A DNA stretch of 19,202 nucleotides from the IMG/VR virus record IMGVR_UViG_2565956716_000004. One strand, given 5' to 3'. Positions 1,285-15,576 of this stretch are shown one piece after another. Position 1 is the first letter of the stretch, and every line of letters begins with the position of its first letter. Source of the DNA: a virus. Lineage: Duplodnaviria > Heunggongvirae > Uroviricota > Caudoviricetes. A program made the translations under genes and the position numbers. The notes below the pieces were generated by a model. The model saw only the letters and a program-made list of their open reading frames with translations. It was not told where the DNA came from and searched no databases.

Positions 1285-2000
1285 AATTCACAGATGTTTT
1301 TTCTCATTCTGTGGTTTCCTTGGCGCTTTCTAGGTTTTTTCAGATAGTTACATTTTTTCAAAAGCATCCTGAGTTCGATCTTACTATCTATCTGTGGCCT
1401 ATTTCTGTCCCATATATGCCCCAAAAAACACCCCAACAGATAAGCAATCTTTTCATGGTGTTACGCGTAAAAACAATAACGGCTTGAAATTATTCAATAC
1501 ACTCTCGAAAGTGCATCAGCCAACCGCAGAACGTTATTGCATACAACGTTTCTGCGGCATATCACGAAACGATTACTTAATGACTGGGACTTCAGACCAC
1601 TCAATATCCGGTACAATTATGTATCAACGCAGTTTAACAACACCCTATATTTAATCCAGAGTGCGAGCAACGTTGTCCCTTTCTCTTTTGCACTCTTAAA
1701 ATATACGATTACTTAAGTGAAGATGCTTGACGAATCGCCAAATAAAACATCTTCATCAGCATAAAAATCCATATATGATTGAAAATTTAGTCATTAATAC
1801 CATTCATATCTGAATACTAACCTAATACGCTTACTAACCGTGAGAAATCTTTTTTTTCGACTTAATCACTCGAAATAAACTTTCACTCAATTGAAAACAA
1901 TTAGCTACAATTATCATTGCAATATCAAATCAAACATAACAACTTGCATAAATTCTCATGGGATACAGCATCAGTTGTGCCAAACACATAAGGAATTGAA

Positions 2001-2198
2001 ATGGACGGAGAAAGCTTTAACTTTGATGACAATGATATTGAATTTATTGCTTCAATGTATGCATCATGTAAATTATCAGGAAGTATCGCCCCCATAATGC
2101 ATATAATGGTTAGCATTCCAAAAAATAAGAAAAAACAATTCTACGAACGAGTTGAGCATTATTGTAGTTTATATTCCAATAAAAACCCACCTTCTTAA
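2001..2198 (+). CDS. Small hypothetical protein (65 aa) in the AT-rich left-end region
   Basis: ATG at 2001 preceded by AGGA (1991-1994) at 6-nt spacing. No recognisable family. Overlapping alternative ORFs exist, so coding status is uncertain. Confidence 0.3.
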   Translation: MDGESFNFDDNDIEFIASMYASCKLSGSIAPIMHIMVSIPKNKKKQFYERVEHYCSLYSNKNPPS

Positions 2199-2342
2199 AT
2201 TCGCTGCATTCTAGTGGATTCCATTAAGAAAACAATGACATACACTCAAACACATCTTTTTTATCAACAGTGAATTTCAGTTCGGCCAGTTTTTACCAGC
2301 TATTATAAAAATAGCACCCATATAAAGTTTTTACCCCACAGG

Positions 2343-2430
2343 TACAGCTGGCCATTCGATAACCGCACTAAGGAAGTGCCAACACGACATCAGCAAGACC
2401 CGATATTTCTTCCATGCCGCCAGCAACGAT
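2343..2430 (-). pseudogene. Relic 3' end of a second tail-fibre-assembly (tfa) gene
   Basis: Reverse-strand translation reads [29 protein letters not shown], which parallels the C-terminus of the intact Tfa at 3019-3600 ([29 protein letters not shown]). Nucleotide similarity to 3030-3110 is visible by eye. No upstream coding continuation. Confidence 0.45.
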
Positions 2431-2901
2431 GTTAAGGTTAAATTAATTATAAAAAAATATATTATAATTCCATCTTCGCATTAAATTTTAACCTTTAATC
2501 TCCACACGGAACAAGTTGCATAGGTGACTATATTAAGAAAACTTATAACCACCAAAAAGATTTGCTTTGCAAGCAAAAACAGTGACCATTGACTCTAAGA
2601 AAATTCCGATCTATTGTTAGTGTCATCAAAGTTACTTAACAGTATTCCGAAATGAAAATACAAAGCAAGCTAATTGTCTTATTAAACATTATCATTGCAT
2701 TTATATTATTTGAGCTTTTAGCTCAAAAATTTGGTTTGAGTACATTATTTTAAAGCAAGATAAACAATATCGGGCACTCTAGTTTTTATAATTAACAATT
2801 AAACGCCCATAAAATGTTATTTACTTTTCTTCGCTATTGTCATATCTTAATATAGTGGCTTACGCCACTCTACTTTCATCATATTTTGTACGTTTATGTA
2901 C

Positions 2902-2932
2902 TCGCCATGAAGCTCTTTCATGGCGATTTTTT
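2902..2932 (+). terminator. Rho-independent terminator (plus strand)
   Basis: Perfect 10-bp stem tcgccatgaa (2902-2911) / ttcatggcga (2917-2926), 5-nt loop, followed by tttttt (2927-2932). Confidence 0.5.
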
Positions 2933-3018
2933 ATTCTTAATCCAAGAACATACTCCCTACCTATAGAAAAATCACTTTTTGAACAAAAGAATAACGTATT
3001 TAGGTAATCATTACGAAT

Positions 3019-3600
3019 TTACCCTATAGGTGCTACTGGCCATTCAATATCCGGTGCAGTTGTTGTATTAACACGGTTCAGCAACACCCGATACTTCTTC
3101 CAGGCTTCCAGCAACGAGATTTCTTCCTCCGTTGCAATTTCCAGATCTGCAGCATCCTGAAGCGGCGCAATATGCTCACTGGCTACCTGCATCAGGTTGT
3201 TTTTTGTTTCTTCCGCCTCCCGGATCCGGAACAGTTTTTCTGCTTCCGTATCCTTCACCCAGGCTGTGCCGTTCCACTTCTGATATTCCCCTTCCGGCGA
3301 TAACCAGGTGACATTTTCCGGTAACGAGCCAAGTTCAGAAATAAATAACGCGTCGCCGGAAGCCACGTCATAGACGGTTTTTCCCCGATGATCTTCAACG
3401 AGATGCCACGATGCCTCATCACTGTTGAAAACAGCCACAAAGCCAGCCGGAATATCTGGCGGTGCAATATCGGTACTGTTTGCTGGCAGACCTGTATGAG
3501 GCGGAATATATGCGTCACCTTCACCAATAAATTCATTAGTTCCGGCCAGCAGATTATAAATTTTTATGGTCCGTGGTTGTTCACTCATTCTGAATGCCAT
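3019..3600 (-). CDS. tfa: Tail fibre assembly protein (lambda Tfa-like)
   Basis: 193-aa product beginning [24 protein letters not shown] and ending [12 protein letters not shown], near-identical to lambda Tfa as I recall it. Its ATG (3598-3600) overlaps the stop of the upstream stf ORF in a TAATG arrangement, as in lambda. Confidence 0.9.
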
Positions 3601-6101: not shown

Positions 6102-6206
6102 GGATTTTTATCAGGATTTATCGGTTTCTGAACCCTGGATATGTTTATCTGTCCCGGCCTGTTGAATCAGGCAAGGAATAGTTAAATACAATAGAGAGGA
6201 TTGTTT

Positions 6207-6479
6207 ATGGACAATAGCACCATTTCTCTACAGGAGTTGCTCGACTGCATTTCCAAGCTTCGGGATGATGTAAATGCCCTTACTGTCGCATTTTCATATC
6301 TGGCATTCTCAATTCCCAAGGAACAAATGCAACCAACACTGGCATCGCTCCAGCTTGAATCACTCAACCCCAAATGGTCCCAGCAACAACAAAATTCTTT
6401 CAAGTGGCTGGCGATATTACTGGAAGAAAAATATGCTGGTGAAATTACCATTTCGGCGGAGTCTTCAGAGAACCAGTAA
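6207..6479 (+). CDS. Hypothetical protein (90 aa) encoded antisense within the lysis cassette
   Basis: ATG at 6207 with AGAGGA (6195-6200) 6 nt upstream, TAA at 6477-6479. Helical-looking product MDNSTISLQELLDCISKLRDDVNALTVAF. Overlaps the 3' end of the ydfR-like gene by 35 nt convergently. Confidence 0.45.
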   Translation: MDNSTISLQELLDCISKLRDDVNALTVAFSYLAFSIPKEQMQPTLASLQLESLNPKWSQQQQNSFKWLAILLEEKYAGEITISAESSENQ

Positions 6480-6789
6480 TTCTTCCCGGTAGCTTTCCTT
6501 TGTAGGTTATCCACACATTCTGCGCCTCTAAAATTATGGGGCGCTTTTCCGGCGACAGCTCATCCCCTTCACATAACCCGGCAGCAACATCCAGGAAGAC
6601 CTGTCTGATGCTCCTTCTGGCTGCTGCCTCATAAAACTCCAGCGCGGCACCTTCAACACGGTCCAGCGAGATGTCCAGGTCAAAAATTTCACCGTCAAAG
6701 CGTTCTTTGTCCCGTAACGCTAAAGTTACCGTAACTTTATTCTCAAAATTGCGGATCCCTTTCACAATCAGTTCATATTTTTGAGTCAT
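6445..6789 (-). CDS. ydfR: YdfR-like (DUF1327) phage protein located between holin and endolysin
   Basis: Product MTQKYELIVKGIRNFENKVTVTLALRDKERFDGEIFDLDISLDRVEGAALEFYEAAARRS matches my memory of Qin YdfR over the N-terminal ~70 aa. The C-terminal ~40 aa appear divergent. Confidence 0.65.
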   Translation of the reverse strand: MTQKYELIVKGIRNFENKVTVTLALRDKERFDGEIFDLDISLDRVEGAALEFYEAAARRSIRQVFLDVAAGLCEGDELSPEKRPIILEAQNVWITYKGKLPGRITGSLKTPPKW

Positions 6790-6793
6790 TGAA

Positions 6794-7009
6794 TTACTCT
6801 CCCCGTGCAGCCTTACGCTTGTCTTCTTTAATCTTGAAATAAAGGTTTGTCAGGTACGTCAGCAGGCCAAATACCAGGCTACCCAGCACACCTATTGCTG
6901 CCCACTGTGAGGGCGTGACTTTATCGAGCAGCTGTAAAAACCAGTAGCCAGCACTGCCTGCGGAGGTGCCGTAGGCAATGCCTGTTGAAATTTTGTCCAT
7001 GGATTTCAT
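6794..7009 (-). CDS. Class II pinholin, phage 21 S / EssD-EssQ family
   Basis: 71-aa product [71 protein letters not shown], near-identical to S21-71 as I recall it, including the dual-start MKSM motif. ATG at 7007-7009. The supplied ORF extension to 7066 is rejected. Confidence 0.88.
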
Positions 7010-7110
7010 AGCCTCACCCCCGCACGGAACGGATGGCATAGTTATTATGTGTAGGCTTCCAGACACATCAATCGGAGCCTTAATTGATATATATGCTGGA
7101 GACGATGCAA

Positions 7111-7135
7111 TATAAAAAGCTCGCCGTAGCGAGCT
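7111..7135 (-). terminator. Rho-independent terminator (minus strand) between the lipoprotein moron and the holin
   Basis: Stem agctcgc (7118-7124) / gcgagct (7129-7135), loop cgta. On the minus strand the hairpin is followed by a U-run (plus-strand A-run 7114-7118). Confidence 0.45.
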
Positions 7136-7260
7136 AATAAAATGTATTTCTCTGATATTATGTTTATTTGTATTAGCTCAGACTTGACATCACAGGTTTC
7201 GTATATAGAACATCATCAAATCTGTCAGTTTGCTATGAATGAGATATAGTAATTGAAGAG

Positions 7261-7656
7261 CTAACCTCGCATGTCAAAGCCAGATTTCTGAAAATCTCTG
7301 TAGACTTCCGGATTGTTGAAGGCCGGAAATTTGGCTTTATGAGCTGCGGACTTTATCGCTTCGCAATAGGCTTTATCACCGTTACTGGTAGATATTTTTA
7401 ACGCCGTGCCATCCTGAGAGAATTCCATATGCAACCTGCATTTTTTCCCTTTCCAGTTATGCGGCTCATCAAGTTTGGCATTAATTGCAGCTCTGATTCC
7501 CCGCGCTTGCGCCCCCCATTCATCCTGATCATCCCAGCGTCCTGAACTGCAACTACCTGTAGCAGTAGTTTTGTGGCAATCTGAAGGGTGTAAAGGTGTG
7601 CATCCCGCAACAAAACCGACCCAAAAAGTCAACATAACGATTTTCTTTAATCCCAC
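7261..7656 (-). CDS. Lipoprotein with divergent TolA C-terminal (domain III)-like fold
   Basis: GTG at 7654-7656 with GAGGAG 6 nt upstream. Signal peptide plus lipobox (FVAGC). C-terminal region KGKKCRLHMEFSQDGTALKISTSNGDKAYCEAIKSAAHKAKFPAFNNPEVYRDFQKSGFDMRG aligns by eye, at roughly 30% identity, to TolA domain III. Confidence 0.65.
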   Translation of the reverse strand: MGLKKIVMLTFWVGFVAGCTPLHPSDCHKTTATGSCSSGRWDDQDEWGAQARGIRAAINAKLDEPHNWKGKKCRLHMEFSQDGTALKISTSNGDKAYCEAIKSAAHKAKFPAFNNPEVYRDFQKSGFDMRG

Positions 7657-7806
7657 TTCTTGCTCCTCAATCCATTAAAATCTCAGCAATAGTAGTTGTT
7701 ACGTCCGCCACTGGCTCAGAGCTGACTATCCGCTAGATTTAGCTCAGTGCCGTAGTTGTGTCAGAACAAACCTAAGCCGAAACCGTTTATTACAAAACAA
7801 TAAATA

Positions 7807-8235
7807 TCAGGGTTTAAAATCCAGCACCCCATTTTGAAATACTTTATATACTTCCGGCGAAGGGGGGGCAGGTATATCAGCATTCTTTATCGCATTCATC
7901 GCTTCACGACATAAATCGAGGTCTCCACTTTCTCTTTTAACCTCCAGTAGAAGGCCATTCGGGGCCATATGCATTCTCAGTGTACACTCTTTTCCTGAAT
8001 ACTTACTCGCATCCCCGAACTGTTTTTCGATGGCGCTCTTGATTTGATGGGCATACAGACGGATATCCTCACTAACATCAGAAGTACGTTCAGATGAACT
8101 CACATACTGTGTCTCTATTGCTTTATCGGAGTAATATGATGTACGGTCATGATAATTTGTCGATACAGCATCAGTGCACCCGATAATAATCCCACTAATA
8201 ATCAACGTAAGAATTGATGCGCTACGAAAACCCAT
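7807..8235 (-). CDS. Lipoprotein carrying a TolA domain III homologue
   Basis: ATG at 8233-8235. Signal peptide with lipobox (IIIGC). The C-terminal 85 aa (DIRLYAHQIKSAIEKQFGDASKYSGKECTLRMHMAPNGLLLEVKRESGDLDLCREAMNAIKNADIPAPPSPEVYKVFQNGVLDFKP) align nearly residue-for-residue with the E. coli TolA C-terminus as I recall it (...YAGQIKSAIESKFYDASSYAGKTCTLRIKLAPDGMLLDIKPEGGDPALCQAALAAAKLAKIPKPPSQAVYEVFKNAPLDFKP). Confidence 0.8.
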   Translation of the reverse strand: MGFRSASILTLIISGIIIGCTDAVSTNYHDRTSYYSDKAIETQYVSSSERTSDVSEDIRLYAHQIKSAIEKQFGDASKYSGKECTLRMHMAPNGLLLEVKRESGDLDLCREAMNAIKNADIPAPPSPEVYKVFQNGVLDFKP

Positions 8236-8768
8236 TTTTCCTCACATATGTCATATAGTAAAGGATTATATATACCGTTGTTTTGGACGCTCAAACAGCG
8301 AATCAGATCAAATAAAACGCACATTTGTTAACATTTACACAAAGTCTGCGTGGGATATTCTGAAAGAATATCCATAATGTGGAGAGAATCTATTGAAGTG
8401 CATGGTGCCGGGGGCCTCCCGGTGAATTCAGTACCAGCACCTGAATCCACGATTATCCCATATACCTACTCGCTGATTGCCCCTCCGCACAGGGGGATTC
8501 ACCATGCCAGTTTCTTTTAACAAACTCCCCGCAAACCAGAGAACAGTCAACCGCCTGAATTGTGAAGTATTTAAAAATTTCTCCCGCTAACTGATACCCG
8601 GCTAACAGTCTGGCGTTTTCTTTTTCAGCAACGGGAAAGCAACAACTACCACACCCGCCACCAGCACACCGTCAGCCAGCACTGACATTATCCGGCTGCT
8701 GCAATGCCATTCACAAAAACAGTAAGCAATCACTTTTTACCGTAACAGGTGATAATCCAGATATGTAT

Positions 8769-9232: not shown

Positions 9233-9309
9233 TGGCGCGCTGTACTGGATTCGAACCAGTGACCGATTGCTTAGAAGGCAATTGCTCTGTCCGGCTGAGC
9301 TAACAACGC
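9233..9309 (-). tRNA. tRNA-Arg (anticodon UCU)
   Basis: Reverse complement folds as a cloverleaf: acceptor GCGTTGT/ACAGCGC, anticodon stem ATTGC/GCAAT with loop CTTCTAA (anticodon TCT), T-loop GGTTCGAATCC, 3' CCA encoded (9233-9235). Confidence 0.85.
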
Positions 9310-9420: not shown

Positions 9421-9496
9421 TGGTGGCCCTTGCTGGATTTGAACCAGCGACCTGGCGATTATGAGTCGCTCGCTCTCACCACTGAACTAAAGGACC
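9421..9496 (-). tRNA. tRNA with anticodon CAU (Met/Ile2-lysidine type, ileZ-like)
   Basis: Reverse complement: acceptor GGTCCTT/AAGGGCC, anticodon loop CTCATAA (anticodon CAT), T-loop GGTTCAAATCC, 3' CCA encoded (9421-9423). Confidence 0.85.
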
Positions 9497-12632: not shown

Positions 12633-12788
12633 TTACTCCTCAGGTTCGTAAGCTGTGAAGACAGCGACCTCCGTCTGGCCGGTTCGGAGTCGTACCTCGC
12701 AGAGGTCTTTCCTCGTTACCAGTGCCGTCACTATGACGGTTAAACAGATGACGATCAGGGCGATTAACATCGCCTTTTGCTGCTTCAT
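12633..12788 (-). CDS. hok: Hok-family type I toxin (HokD/RelF-like)
   Basis: 51-aa product MKQQKAMLIALIVICLTVIVTALVTRKDLCEVRLRTGQTEVAVFTAYEPEE, near-identical to E. coli HokD as I recall it. ATG at 12786-12788. The upstream in-frame extension to 12845 is an ORF-finder artefact or mok-like overlap. Confidence 0.88.
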   Translation of the reverse strand: MKQQKAMLIALIVICLTVIVTALVTRKDLCEVRLRTGQTEVAVFTAYEPEE

Positions 12789-13405
12789 AGCCTGCTTCTC
12801 CTTGCCTTTCGGCACGTAAGAGGCTAACCTACATGTGTCTAGCATGAAATTGGCCTCAGATTAATGTTAAGCGTCTTGCAGGACGCGTAATGTTAACTGG
12901 GGCTTTTCTCTATCTGCCTTTGGTGTTCATGCCTGAGGCAGATAGCCTCAAGCACCCGCAGCAATTCTACTTAACTCACGTCACCTCGCCAATATAAAAT
13001 CAATCAGAAAGGCGATCCGTAAGAACAACAGCAAGACAATAAATTGCCATTACAGCCGCAATAGCTAGCGCACATTTGAGAACCAGCACGACAACCTCCT
13101 GTATTGGACGTACACCAGTCCTGATAAATATGAGGCTGTCTCATCATTGATTCAATATAACTATTGGGTATAGTTTCTGTGATTTTGTTCTGTAGAAATG
13201 GAACACAACAACCAGTCACCACCAGCACTTCTTTAAATACGCCAAGTCCGACGCAAGCTAACCTTCTAGTCCGCTTTGAGCGATCTGTAGACATTGCTAG
13301 CAGCCTTCTGTGTGAATTCTCAGGGAGCAGGTCGGCATAGCATCACGTTGAGGCTCTTACCCTACTTGTTGACACCAACCCTAACTCCACAGACTGATTC
13401 ATAAA

Positions 13406-14407
13406 TTAGTAATCTGCGTATTTCGCACTTTTCAGAAATGCTTTCATATTTTCATTAGGTCGCTCAATTTCGAAGTTACTTCCATATAACTCTTGTAATT
13501 TTGGCCATAACTTACTTAATAACCCTCTCCTGCGATAAAATGGATGTATCCAAACGGTAGATAGGTACGGAGAATTTGCATTTGAATTGTTTATTGTGAC
13601 CAGCCCAACTAAACATTGTCGATAACCACTATTATCCATTGATTGTATTTCTTCGACGAATGGATACGCGATTACATCAGTCCAACCATGATCGGTTGTA
13701 TCCCATTGCATTCCGTCATGACATTCCTTCGACTGATAGCGGCGTAAAGCTACACACGCGAGCTTTTGCCAATCTGGAGAATTAATTGTGATCTCTTCAT
13801 CGTATGACGCGCCTATTGGAGCGGGTATTGGTCTGATTAATCCAGCATGGCATTCATCATAGAACTTCATGTTTCCCTCAGAAACGTTGTGTACGTTGGG
13901 TTGCTCCATGTGTGCGCCATTCAAAAATAGCTCTGATAGTAGTGTATCTACACTGTAATCTTTATTGATTATTGTCGGCTTAGAGTTTTTCTTATTAAGG
14001 CCGCGAGTAACGATTTTTTGATCAATGTTAACAACATGGAATAATCCGTCGGGGAGACTAGCGAACCACGATGGGGCATCGGACCAGAATAGCATGCCTT
14101 TTGTACTTCTTAAGAGTTTAATTAAGTTAATACAAGCTTCTTCACTAGTCTTGCCGTTGATGCGAAGTATGTTAGGACTAAAGTAATATTCATCCATATC
14201 AGGGAATGCAGCTTCGCAAAACTCCTGTACATAATTTAGCACCTGGATTCTACAGAGATCATCATAGCTGGTAATAACTAAGGGGATATCTTCATTACTA
14301 TTATGATTATCAATAATGCAATCTATAGCGAGACTTACTGCTTTGCGTATCACTTCAGTTGAATCTAACGACTCTAAAAATTTTGTCTTTCGTGTGCGAA
14401 TATCCAT
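13406..14407 (-). CDS. Cargo gene B: 333-aa protein with an unassigned N-terminal region and a GNAT-like acetyltransferase motif near the C-terminus
   Basis: ATG at 14405-14407, TAA at 13406-13408, 15 nt downstream of gene A. Residues ~285-301 (VWIHPFYRRRGLLSKLW) resemble GNAT motif A (RimI-type V-x-P-x-x-Q/R-R-R-G-x-G/A). AT-richer than the flanking phage genes. Confidence 0.65.
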   Translation of the reverse strand: MDIRTRKTKFLESLDSTEVIRKAVSLAIDCIIDNHNSNEDIPLVITSYDDLCRIQVLNYVQEFCEAAFPDMDEYYFSPNILRINGKTSEEACINLIKLLRSTKGMLFWSDAPSWFASLPDGLFHVVNIDQKIVTRGLNKKNSKPTIINKDYSVDTLLSELFLNGAHMEQPNVHNVSEGNMKFYDECHAGLIRPIPAPIGASYDEEITINSPDWQKLACVALRRYQSKECHDGMQWDTTDHGWTDVIAYPFVEEIQSMDNSGYRQCLVGLVTINNSNANSPYLSTVWIHPFYRRRGLLSKLWPKLQELYGSNFEIERPNENMKAFLKSAKYADY

Positions 14408-14422
14408 GTATGACCTGCGCTA

Positions 14423-15385
14423 TTAAAATTCATGAATGAACGGTTTGTCATCTGGTTGCAAAATGGTGGTTTTATTCGTTGCTACATTTAAACTGTTGTA
14501 GAGCATAATTGCCAGGTTCGATGCATTTTCAATCAGCGTTTCAAGATCCTGGTCTGTAATCACTACGAGGTTCCCTTCTTTATCCTTTCCACCACGATGC
14601 ACTAAGTGATTTCGATTGAGGGTTGCCAATTCAATAGCTTCTATCGGACAGTCTTTTTGTACTTTTATATCGAATGTAGCTTCATAGCGGTCGATTACCT
14701 TTTTAGTGCTATGCCAGCTTGCACTGATCAAGTGTTCCTTGATTGACCTGATTAGCTCTCCCCTAATTTTCTCGATGGGTTCACCCTTGAAAGGCAACGC
14801 AGCAATATCTTTGCTTACTTTAAATTCAGTCTTACCTTTTTCTATACAATTGGCTATGTAGACATCATCTTTCTCTATAGAATTAATGAATAGCTCAACA
14901 TAAAGCGTTTCCAAAGCTGTAATAACATTCGTGTAGAGCAAACTAAGCAAGTGGTTTTTTTGCTGTTGTTCAGTTTTATCTTTTGCAAGTTTTTTTATTT
15001 TATCGATATTATCAATGAATTTTAAATACGGATTACCGGAAGACGTTACAGCGTCGTAGATATCATCATCGTACCAATCATCTATATTATTTGAGTTTCC
15101 AGACCAGTCAAAACATTGTGTTTGTAATTCATCTACTAATTCCTCAATATACTCAGATTTAACATATTGACCGAAGATGGATTGTAGTTCTTCGCTCGCA
15201 TCATACGGCCCGCCATATATGTAAGCATAGCCACCTTCTCTACTTTCATACGGACAAGCATTTGCCGGATCTTCAAAGTTTTCAAAGAACCAGTTTTTCA
15301 TTACTTCGAGTTGATCTTTTTTGCTTATGTATTTTAAAGATTTTAGTGGAACTTTCTTTCCATTAACCTCGAAAACAATTTTCAC
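14423..15385 (-). CDS. Cargo gene A: 321-aa protein with a HEPN-like Rx4H motif (RNHLVH, ~residues 259-264)
   Basis: Start assigned to GTG (15383-15385) with AGGGAG (15395-15400) 9 nt upstream. The supplied ORF extension to 15535 overlaps the promoter and is rejected. AT-rich: sampled 60-nt windows are about 32-40% GC by hand count, against about 55% in the adjacent replication gene. Confidence 0.65.
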   Translation of the reverse strand: MKIVFEVNGKKVPLKSLKYISKKDQLEVMKNWFFENFEDPANACPYESREGGYAYIYGGPYDASEELQSIFGQYVKSEYIEELVDELQTQCFDWSGNSNNIDDWYDDDIYDAVTSSGNPYLKFIDNIDKIKKLAKDKTEQQQKNHLLSLLYTNVITALETLYVELFINSIEKDDVYIANCIEKGKTEFKVSKDIAALPFKGEPIEKIRGELIRSIKEHLISASWHSTKKVIDRYEATFDIKVQKDCPIEAIELATLNRNHLVHRGGKDKEGNLVVITDQDLETLIENASNLAIMLYNSLNVATNKTTILQPDDKPFIHEF

Positions 15386-15418
15386 GATGTAACGCTCCCT
15401 TGTATCAATTGCGCAACT

Positions 15419-15427
15419 ATTATACCA
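15419..15427 (-). promoter_or_regulatory. Extended -10 promoter element (TGGTATAAT) for the cargo operon
   Basis: Minus strand reads TGGTATAAT about 30 nt upstream of the GTG start. No strong -35, which is consistent with extended -10 promoters. Confidence 0.4.
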
Positions 15428-15576
15428 CAGCGAAATACAGGGCATAACCTGCCTCCTTAAACTAACATACCATGAGCCAGCAATGTCCGCTATTGGCACA
15501 AAGCGGACAACCACGCTAGCTCTACCCTGTGCCACAAAATGTCAATTTGCATCTGAACTAATGCACTTTAATCTCG

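Follow-up and report, generated by a model that had tools for sequence, protein, structure and literature searches.

The HEPN–GNAT gene pair of a Qin-like prophage is the anti-phage system DS-33, a sharply bounded cassette in which gene A is probably an autonomous HEPN effector

We analysed a 19,202-nucleotide stretch of viral DNA (IMG/VR record IMGVR_UViG_2565956716_000004, Caudoviricetes; the whole stretch is called the window here), in which two co-oriented genes, A and B, lie on the minus strand with a spacer of exactly 15 nt between them. A sequence-only reading of the window had picked out these two open reading frames (ORFs) as a candidate undescribed defence operon. The arrangement is borne out by the ORF list and the sequence, and gene B has the extent given to it. 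The block is the published anti-phage system DS-33, and so was already known: A matches 320 of 320 residues, and B 330 of 333, of the sequences in the supplement of the DefensePredictor paper (Science 2026, doi 10.1126/science.adv7924, PMC13092281), where the genes stand in the same order. Since the tested DS-33A and window A are 100% identical, the system can no longer be called undescribed. The two genes and the signals upstream of A are:

14423..15385, minus strand: gene A (DS-33A, WP_014639476.1), 320 amino acids (aa), GTG start at 15385, stop at 14423; HEPN defence effector
13406..14407, minus strand: gene B (DS-33B family, WP_023277548.1, PHROG 16994), 333 aa
15395..15400, minus strand: Shine-Dalgarno sequence AGGGAG of gene A, as read from the sequence
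15419..15427, minus strand: extended -10 element TGGTATAAT, the likely promoter of the A-B transcript

The frame of A is open from 15535. The coordinates, the GTG start and the AGGGAG had been read correctly, and the length is 320 aa rather than the 321 aa first counted, because RefSeq (WP_014639476.1) starts the protein at the GTG at 15385, a position that coincides with the N-termini (MK/MN) of the homologs. The extended -10 element is likewise present where it had been placed, and is kept as TGnTAnAAT in every unrelated context in which the genes occur, Aeromonas included; it is still present at loci from which A has been deleted. A consensus-based promoter scanner did not list the TGGTATAAT site among its predictions because the -35 region is poor or weak.

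DS-33, given the working name "GNAT" and marked as replicated, was cloned together with the region predicted to hold its native promoter, on a low-copy plasmid in E. coli MG1655; the clone carrying A and B was challenged with a panel of 24 phages, and five phages were used in a mutant follow-up (PMC13092281). Protection amounted to 2-6 logs against T7, T3, Bas26 and Bas67, in agreement with the proposal that the operon is an anti-phage defence. The plaque data, expressed as log10 protection in two replicates (PMC13092281), are:

wild type: T7 3.8/2.6; T3 3.3/2.4; Bas67 4.0/2.0; Bas26 5.0/5.9; T5 0.8/0.1
HEPN deletion: T7, T3 and Bas67 ~0; Bas26 0.5/0.3; T5 0.5/0.1
R258A: T7 0.8/0.5; T3 -0.3/0.3; Bas67 0.5/0; Bas26 0.7/0.4; T5 0.4/0.3
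GNAT deletion: T7 4.8/4.3; T3 3.3/3.3; Bas67 4.0/3.3; Bas26 5.0/4.9; T5 1.7/0.5

From these mutants it follows that A is necessary, is sufficient without B, and needs R258, and that B is dispensable and by itself gives no protection against these phages. The arginine of the HEPN motif is required, R258A abolishing protection (PMC13092281). The phenotypes are reported in the supplements only; they are absent from the main-text discussion, no mechanism is proposed, and WP_014639476.1 is named in supplementary tables (PMC13092281). Our literature searches (RiboL-PSP; HEPN with GNAT and prophage; the RefSeq accessions in main texts) returned nothing relevant, the accession being found in supplementary tables only. 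As a discovery lead, the locus has therefore been overtaken: the operon was cloned, its protection shown and its genetics dissected by others (PMC13092281).

Three features of A bear on how it might act:

15110..15310, minus strand: HEPN/RES-NTD1 domain of A, residues ~26-92, where the A family is most conserved
14462..14968, minus strand: HEPN domain of A, residues ~140-308, with the invariant E159
14597..14614, minus strand: catalytic motif R258-N-H-L-V-H263 (Rx4H) of A, at the end of helix 248-263

Profile comparisons of A and its homologs point to a two-domain protein, HEPN/RES-NTD1 followed by a RiboL-PSP-type HEPN domain. Window A scores 22.2 bits against Pfam PF18870 (HEPN/RES-NTD1), under the gathering score of 27.4; among the 44 homologs that we aligned, with identity down to 26%, 43 match this family at E<=0.01 (best 1e-6), and several carry precomputed PF18870 hits. 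For PF18735 (RiboL-PSP-HEPN), the window protein itself has no match at E<=1 and 21 of the 44 homologs do match (best E 7e-11), so that A is assigned to this family by transitivity. R258, H263 and E159 are invariant across the alignment, as is an N-terminal motif, WF..NFEDP....PY.S.EGGY.YI.GGPYDA, in which W32, F33, D39, P40, P45, G51, G52, G58, G59 and P60 stand out. HEPN proteins are recognized by an Rx4-6H motif at the end of helix 3, a polar residue after the arginine, and an upstream acidic residue (PMC3710099); A has R258-N-H-L-V-H263 at the end of helix 248-263 and E159 upstream. Structural comparison finds the four-helix HEPN fold in A, with matches that include the HepT toxins 8xdj, 5yep and 7ae2. 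The RNHLVH motif had been recognized from the sequence, with its numbering one residue off (259-264 for R258-H263). By analogy, HEPN/RES-NTD1 is the presumed sensor or regulatory domain, and A is a predicted metal-independent RNase, for which the evidence is genetic (R258A abolishes defence).

HEPN/RES-NTD1 for A, and Acetyltransf_1 for B as described below, remain under threshold for the window proteins themselves and are matched by homologs. PADLOC has no match for A, B or the 44 A homologs, NCBIfam has none for A or B, and a PDB sequence search with the A and B family profiles gave nothing meaningful. Both proteins fall into PHROGs annotated without function. The suggestion that A resembles Abi_2 (AbiD/AbiF, PF07751) did not hold up, Abi_2 being absent from the Pfam hits of A and its 44 homologs. 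We also rejected membership of PD-T4-2, for which the PADLOC models match 0 of the 44 homologs and the neighbours of A are a DUF977 gene and B.

Several characterized systems help to place A. HepS, from the Salmonella prophage Gifsy-1, is a solo HEPN abortive-infection protein that is auto-inhibited, triggered by the tail tip protein, and cleaves tRNA (PMC13043305). Like A, it is a prophage HEPN gene that works alone from an accessory slot after lambdoid replication genes, needs its Rx4-6H motif for defence, and has no inhibitory partner. A search for sequence homology between A and the HepS family was negative, and by analogy HepS is the likely functional model for A. DARNA/PD-T7-3, which is triggered by single-stranded DNA bound by single-stranded DNA-binding protein, also cleaves tRNA. 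PD-T4-2 (Vassallo et al., 2022) couples a DUF262 protein to a PF18735 HEPN protein, the HEPN family that it has in common with A, and PD-T4-2_B is listed as a remote homolog of A, with probability 96.1 over 55% of the protein (PMC13092281); A differs in having HEPN/RES-NTD1 instead of a DUF262 partner. The architecture of A itself was catalogued computationally as a MAE_18760/MAE_28990-clade HEPN domain fused to HEPN/RES-NTD1 (Anantharaman et al., 2013, PMC3710099), in a survey that reports no GNAT neighbour and holds no experimental data. DS-33A is a validated member of a very widespread HEPN/RES-NTD1 plus RiboL-PSP-HEPN architecture, with relatives of A in at least 239 species genomes from many phyla.

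Gene B had been noted for a resemblance to GNAT motif A near its end, and its GNAT fold is borne out, with the following parts of the protein defined:

13883..14407, minus strand: N-terminal alpha/beta domain of B, residues ~1-175, confidently modelled
13409..13855, minus strand: GNAT-fold domain of B, residues ~185-333, with the motif-A-like WIHPFYRRRG
13541..13543, minus strand: codon for B P289, invariant in the family and leucine in the allele of the DS-33 paper

As modelled, B consists of an N-terminal domain that profiles do not assign and a C-terminal GNAT fold. The N-terminal domain has no match in Pfam, NCBIfam, PADLOC or PDB sequences, and an exhaustive profile search confined it to the small family of full-length B proteins, which forms ~11 clusters at 50% identity. 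For residues ~177-330, there are also relatives of ~160 aa that stand alone; a word-index search found only 5 proteins. The model (predicted local distance difference test, pLDDT, 90) shows the alpha/beta fold of GNAT enzymes. With Acetyltransf_1, window B reaches 20.0 bits, just under the gathering score of 20.7, and 16 of 39 homologs match (best E 6e-6). VWIHPFYRRRG is present, and W286, H288, P289 and R292 are invariant in the 39 homologs. The pyrophosphate-loop position reads R292-R-R-G-L-L, in which R292 is invariant and the glycines vary, as compared with R/Q-x-x-G-x-G/A. Toxins of the TacAT and AtaRT type share the GNAT fold with B; they are proteins of ~170 aa with an adjacent small ribbon-helix-helix (RHH)/DUF1778 antitoxin. 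We rejected B as a GNAT/RHH toxin: it has 333 aa, and no small RHH/DUF1778 partner lies beside B or beside its stand-alone homologs.

The B protein that was tested differs from that of the window at three positions, I41T, P289L and Y330H, such that the window has I41, P289 and Y330, the common allele, and the DS-33 clone has the rare L289 allele. The window allele was present on at least 1000 contigs, as against 31 for the L289 allele, and P289 is present in all 42 B copies from the loci that we fetched. Because the cloned allele carries P289L at a family-invariant residue, B was not fairly tested, and the published "dispensable" result may understate B.

The A-B block, part of a Qin-like E. 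coli prophage, lies between DUF977/replisome-organizer genes and hokD/sok, as had been proposed from the sequence and as RefSeq annotation and the Rfam match to sok (12783-12957) confirm. An identical locus is found in E. coli KSC9, with the gene order Cro/CI, YdaT, replisome organizer, DUF977, A, B, hokD, DUF968, RusA, antiterminator. The block is AT-rich, again as noted earlier, with a GC content of 0.32-0.42 against 0.46-0.61 towards the replication genes and 0.42-0.51 towards hok. In the GenBank phage collection the flank is matched and the cassette is unmatched. To define the limits of the cassette, we compared the window by BLASTN with loci from Serratia (L003), an IncF plasmid (L119), a Providencia plasmid (L120), a P4-like element (L101), Enterobacter (L113-115) and a umuDC element (L099). 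In all of these contexts, homology starts at 15506-15509 and ends at 13268/13269 or at 13332, which delimits the following unit and ends:

13269..15508, minus strand: whole mobile cassette (hairpin, promoter, A, B, 3' tail), 2.24 kb, the unit common to unrelated contexts
15485..15508, minus strand: left-end hairpin GTCCGCT-N10-AGCGGAC, DNA fold -9.3 kcal/mol, z -4.1
13269..13282, minus strand: right-end motif CGCTCAAAGCGGAC, from the right-end alignment; the hairpin is weak here

The ends form a perfect 10-bp inverted repeat, the first 10 nt on the left being GTCCGCTTTG and the last 10 nt on the right CAAAGCGGAC. The pattern CGCT-N(3-12)-AGCGGAC occurs in the 19.2-kb window at the two cassette ends only, against 0.05 occurrences expected, and the same ends bound the cassette in plasmids, an element resembling an integrative and conjugative element (ICE), a P4-like satellite and chromosomes. 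Qin-like prophages that do not carry the cassette keep the left hairpin, followed by QueH (epoxyqueuosine reductase) or ~220 nt of filler, and then the right motif (L127 2742-3554; L128 2736-3814). The slot thus holds A and B, QueH or almost nothing in different prophages, in keeping with its description as a variable cargo site, and judging from these alignments the end motifs look like cargo-exchange junctions. Target-site duplications were looked for at the cassette ends and none were seen, and for this reason we do not call the cassette a transposon. A sharply bounded cassette found in prophages, plasmids, ICEs and satellites could help to explain how cargo is exchanged at the slot.

Two side observations concern the cassette ends. 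On the IncF plasmid of K. variicola (L119 7212-7451), a relB antitoxin gene directly adjoins the left end, and IS26 is found past the right end; in K-12, the corresponding slot of Qin carries relBE, which hints that the plasmid segment is of prophage origin. In the window, an ORF of 96 aa (13004-13294, minus strand) with a cysteine-rich C-terminus (CASYCGCNGNLLSCCCSYGSPF) begins exactly at the right end of the cassette. It is conserved in other Qin-like loci (L082, L090, L106), RefSeq has no gene there, and perhaps it is no more than a stretch of the region upstream of hok/sok.

In both families most members are solo genes, carried by mobile elements. A is solo in 78 of its 80 best loci, B adjoining only the two closest relatives (>=98% identity); the 78 solo loci have heterogeneous neighbours and no conserved alternative partner gene. 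Relatives of A at <=76% identity occur without B, and relatives of B at 38-62% identity stand without A, for example in a Shewanella island (L108), Idiomarina (L109), a Serratia ICE (L116), Marinomonas (L121, beside an Abi_2 gene), a Mu-like phage (L123), and a defence island (P0164 contig) with TerB, a BrxD-like ATPase, a helicase, B, Mrr and HEPN/Toprim-NTD. Stand-alone GNAT homologs are found in a phage directly after the replication gene (L125) and in integrase-bearing islands, and either B or these homologs occur in satellite-like islands (L124 and the P4-like L101) and on plasmids (L119, L120). The A-B pair is confined to a single clade in which B identity is >=79% and the 15-nt spacer is kept throughout. 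We found it in Qin-like prophages of E. coli (in 209 of 5426 complete genomes), on plasmids, IncF among them, of Klebsiella, Citrobacter and Providencia, in the umuDC element L099, and in Aeromonas caviae (L110-L112, ~6200-8300), where it lies in a relaxase island adjoining a convergent SIR2 gene and a cREC_REC gene, a neighbourhood that looks like a small defence island. Conservation of the two genes as a pair, which the sequence-only reading had put forward as a check, is therefore limited to one clade among mostly solo genes. Together with the GNAT deletion, which keeps protection, this distribution refutes an obligate two-gene system.

Within the clade, the pair decays in one direction. 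At solo-B loci with 86% identity, DNA alignment shows the A promoter and leader joined to the last 50-70 nt of A, and because there are two different junctions, A has been deleted at least twice. Protein-level remnants of A were looked for next to solo B and none were found. A is also interrupted by IS1 in L090, broken in the Providencia plasmid L120, and 5'-truncated in genome H53, which makes at least five losses or breaks of A with B and the shared promoter retained; no case of B loss was seen in the A-B clade. The ratio of nonsynonymous to synonymous substitution rates (dN/dS) is 0.24-0.39 for B, paired or solo, and 0.06-0.16 for A; purifying selection acts on B whether or not A accompanies it. 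Read from the comparative evidence alone, these patterns describe two autonomous cargo genes that were joined once into an operon, A being the costly one. As a side observation, some E. coli prophages (L106 5644-6606, P0148) carry a fusion of residues 1-118 of a DnaC-like helicase loader, up to Walker A, to residue 133 of B; the deletion behind it has taken out A together with codons 1-132 of B.

We consider it probable that DS-33 is a 2.24-kb cassette in a nin-type cargo slot of a Qin-like prophage, with A as an autonomous HEPN effector that acts along the following lines. A would be made constitutively in the lysogen in an auto-inhibited form, and infection by a sensitive phage would be sensed via its conserved N-terminal domain. 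A HEPN dimer of A would then bring R258 and H263 into a composite active site and cleave RNA of the host. The most likely targets would be tRNA anticodon loops, which HepS, DARNA and PrrC cut, or else mRNA; translation would halt and the infection abort. B, although co-transcribed, would act independently of A or at most dampen it.

Some observations weigh against this account. The pairing of A with B persists, at an unchanged spacing of 15 nt, to identities as low as 79-86% and from E. coli to Aeromonas, which hints at some functional link. Protection in the GNAT deletion equals or exceeds that of the wild type in 9 of 10 comparisons, with gains of 1.0 and 1.7 logs for T7, so that B may not be fully independent of A; the gain fits a mild negative role of B and would be explained just as well by an artefact of expression. 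Neither RNA cleavage nor a trigger, an oligomeric state or an abortive-infection phenotype is reported for DS-33 (PMC13092281), so that a sensor role for NTD1 and an RNA target for A are proposed by analogy only.

What B contributes is less clearly indicated, and here three readings can be weighed. The first, which we hold at a little under an even chance, is that B is an independent cargo gene that serves the mobile element, through defence against phages outside the panel, counter-defence or modification of the host, and that a self-sufficient A shares its promoter by chance. As a counter-defence or host-modifying acetyltransferase, B would be of the kind seen in AcrVA5, a GNAT-fold anti-CRISPR. 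The places where B and its GNAT homologs turn up, in phages after replication genes (L125), satellite-like islands (L124, L101), ICEs (L116), plasmids (L119, L120) and defence islands (P0164), are those of a mobile cargo gene; B and the promoter survive deletion of A, and solo B is under purifying selection. However, B alone, as left by the HEPN deletion, gave no protection against the five phages tested, protection against all of which was lost once the HEPN gene was gone, so that a B-specific protection is not evident, at least for the rare L289 allele.

A second reading, which we regard as unlikely, is that A and B resemble a toxin-antitoxin pair, in which the acyltransferase B would neutralize or tune the HEPN toxin A, for example by acetylation, and infection would relieve this control. 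MntA, which AMPylates HepT, offers a parallel: in the HepT/MntA type VII systems, as here, a HEPN RNase lies beside an enzyme gene. The parallel has limits, since MntA is an MNT nucleotidyltransferase antitoxin and B is a GNAT-fold protein that is dispensable, and A is not lethal without B. Such control would fit the tight operon with its 15-nt spacer conserved from E. coli to Aeromonas, and the consistent loss of A with retention of B when the pair decays (the two deletions, IS1 in L090, L120 and H53). It would also fit the T7 protection that rises by 1.0 and 1.7 logs in the GNAT deletion, and a stronger effect may have been masked by P289L in the tested B. However, the GNAT-deletion strain is viable and protective, and, for the allele tested at least, we therefore reject B as an essential antitoxin. 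Relatives of A at <=76% identity without B, and of B at <=62% without A, argue in the same direction, as do similar purifying selection on B with and without A and an AlphaFold table that has no A-B interface score (PMC13092281).

A more specific form of this second reading, which we find similarly improbable, is that B in its common P289 form has acyltransferase activity and modifies A covalently, so as to restrain or tune it, in the manner of the MntA-HepT (type VII) logic but with a GNAT protein as the partner. If true, the "GNAT dispensable" result would be an effect of the rare P289L allele that was cloned, and the fact that A is the partner lost would be explained, together with the gain of 1-1.7 logs against T7 on removing L289 B.

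The third reading, that B no longer has a function and is a passenger in decay, is highly improbable: its dispensability for defence and a dN/dS (0.24-0.39) above that of A (0.06-0.16) would suit it, but the ORF is intact and the invariant motif kept in 42 of 42 copies surveyed, family members from different genera, with identity as low as 38%, keep 38 columns invariant, the structure is modelled with confidence (pLDDT 90), and B is repeatedly retained upon loss of A.

Other features of the prophage lie away from the cassette. Just downstream of the antiterminator gene are two tRNA genes (9233-9309 and 9421-9496, minus strand), one for Arg (TCT) and one with a CAT anticodon (Ile in RefSeq), which may matter if the prophage's own or rival HEPN effectors cleave tRNAs. 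Rfam places the small RNAs IS009 and STnc100 at 3059-3257 and 8346-8536, both on the minus strand, and the region from 1400 to 3000 of the window is likewise AT-rich, with a GC content of 0.29-0.37.

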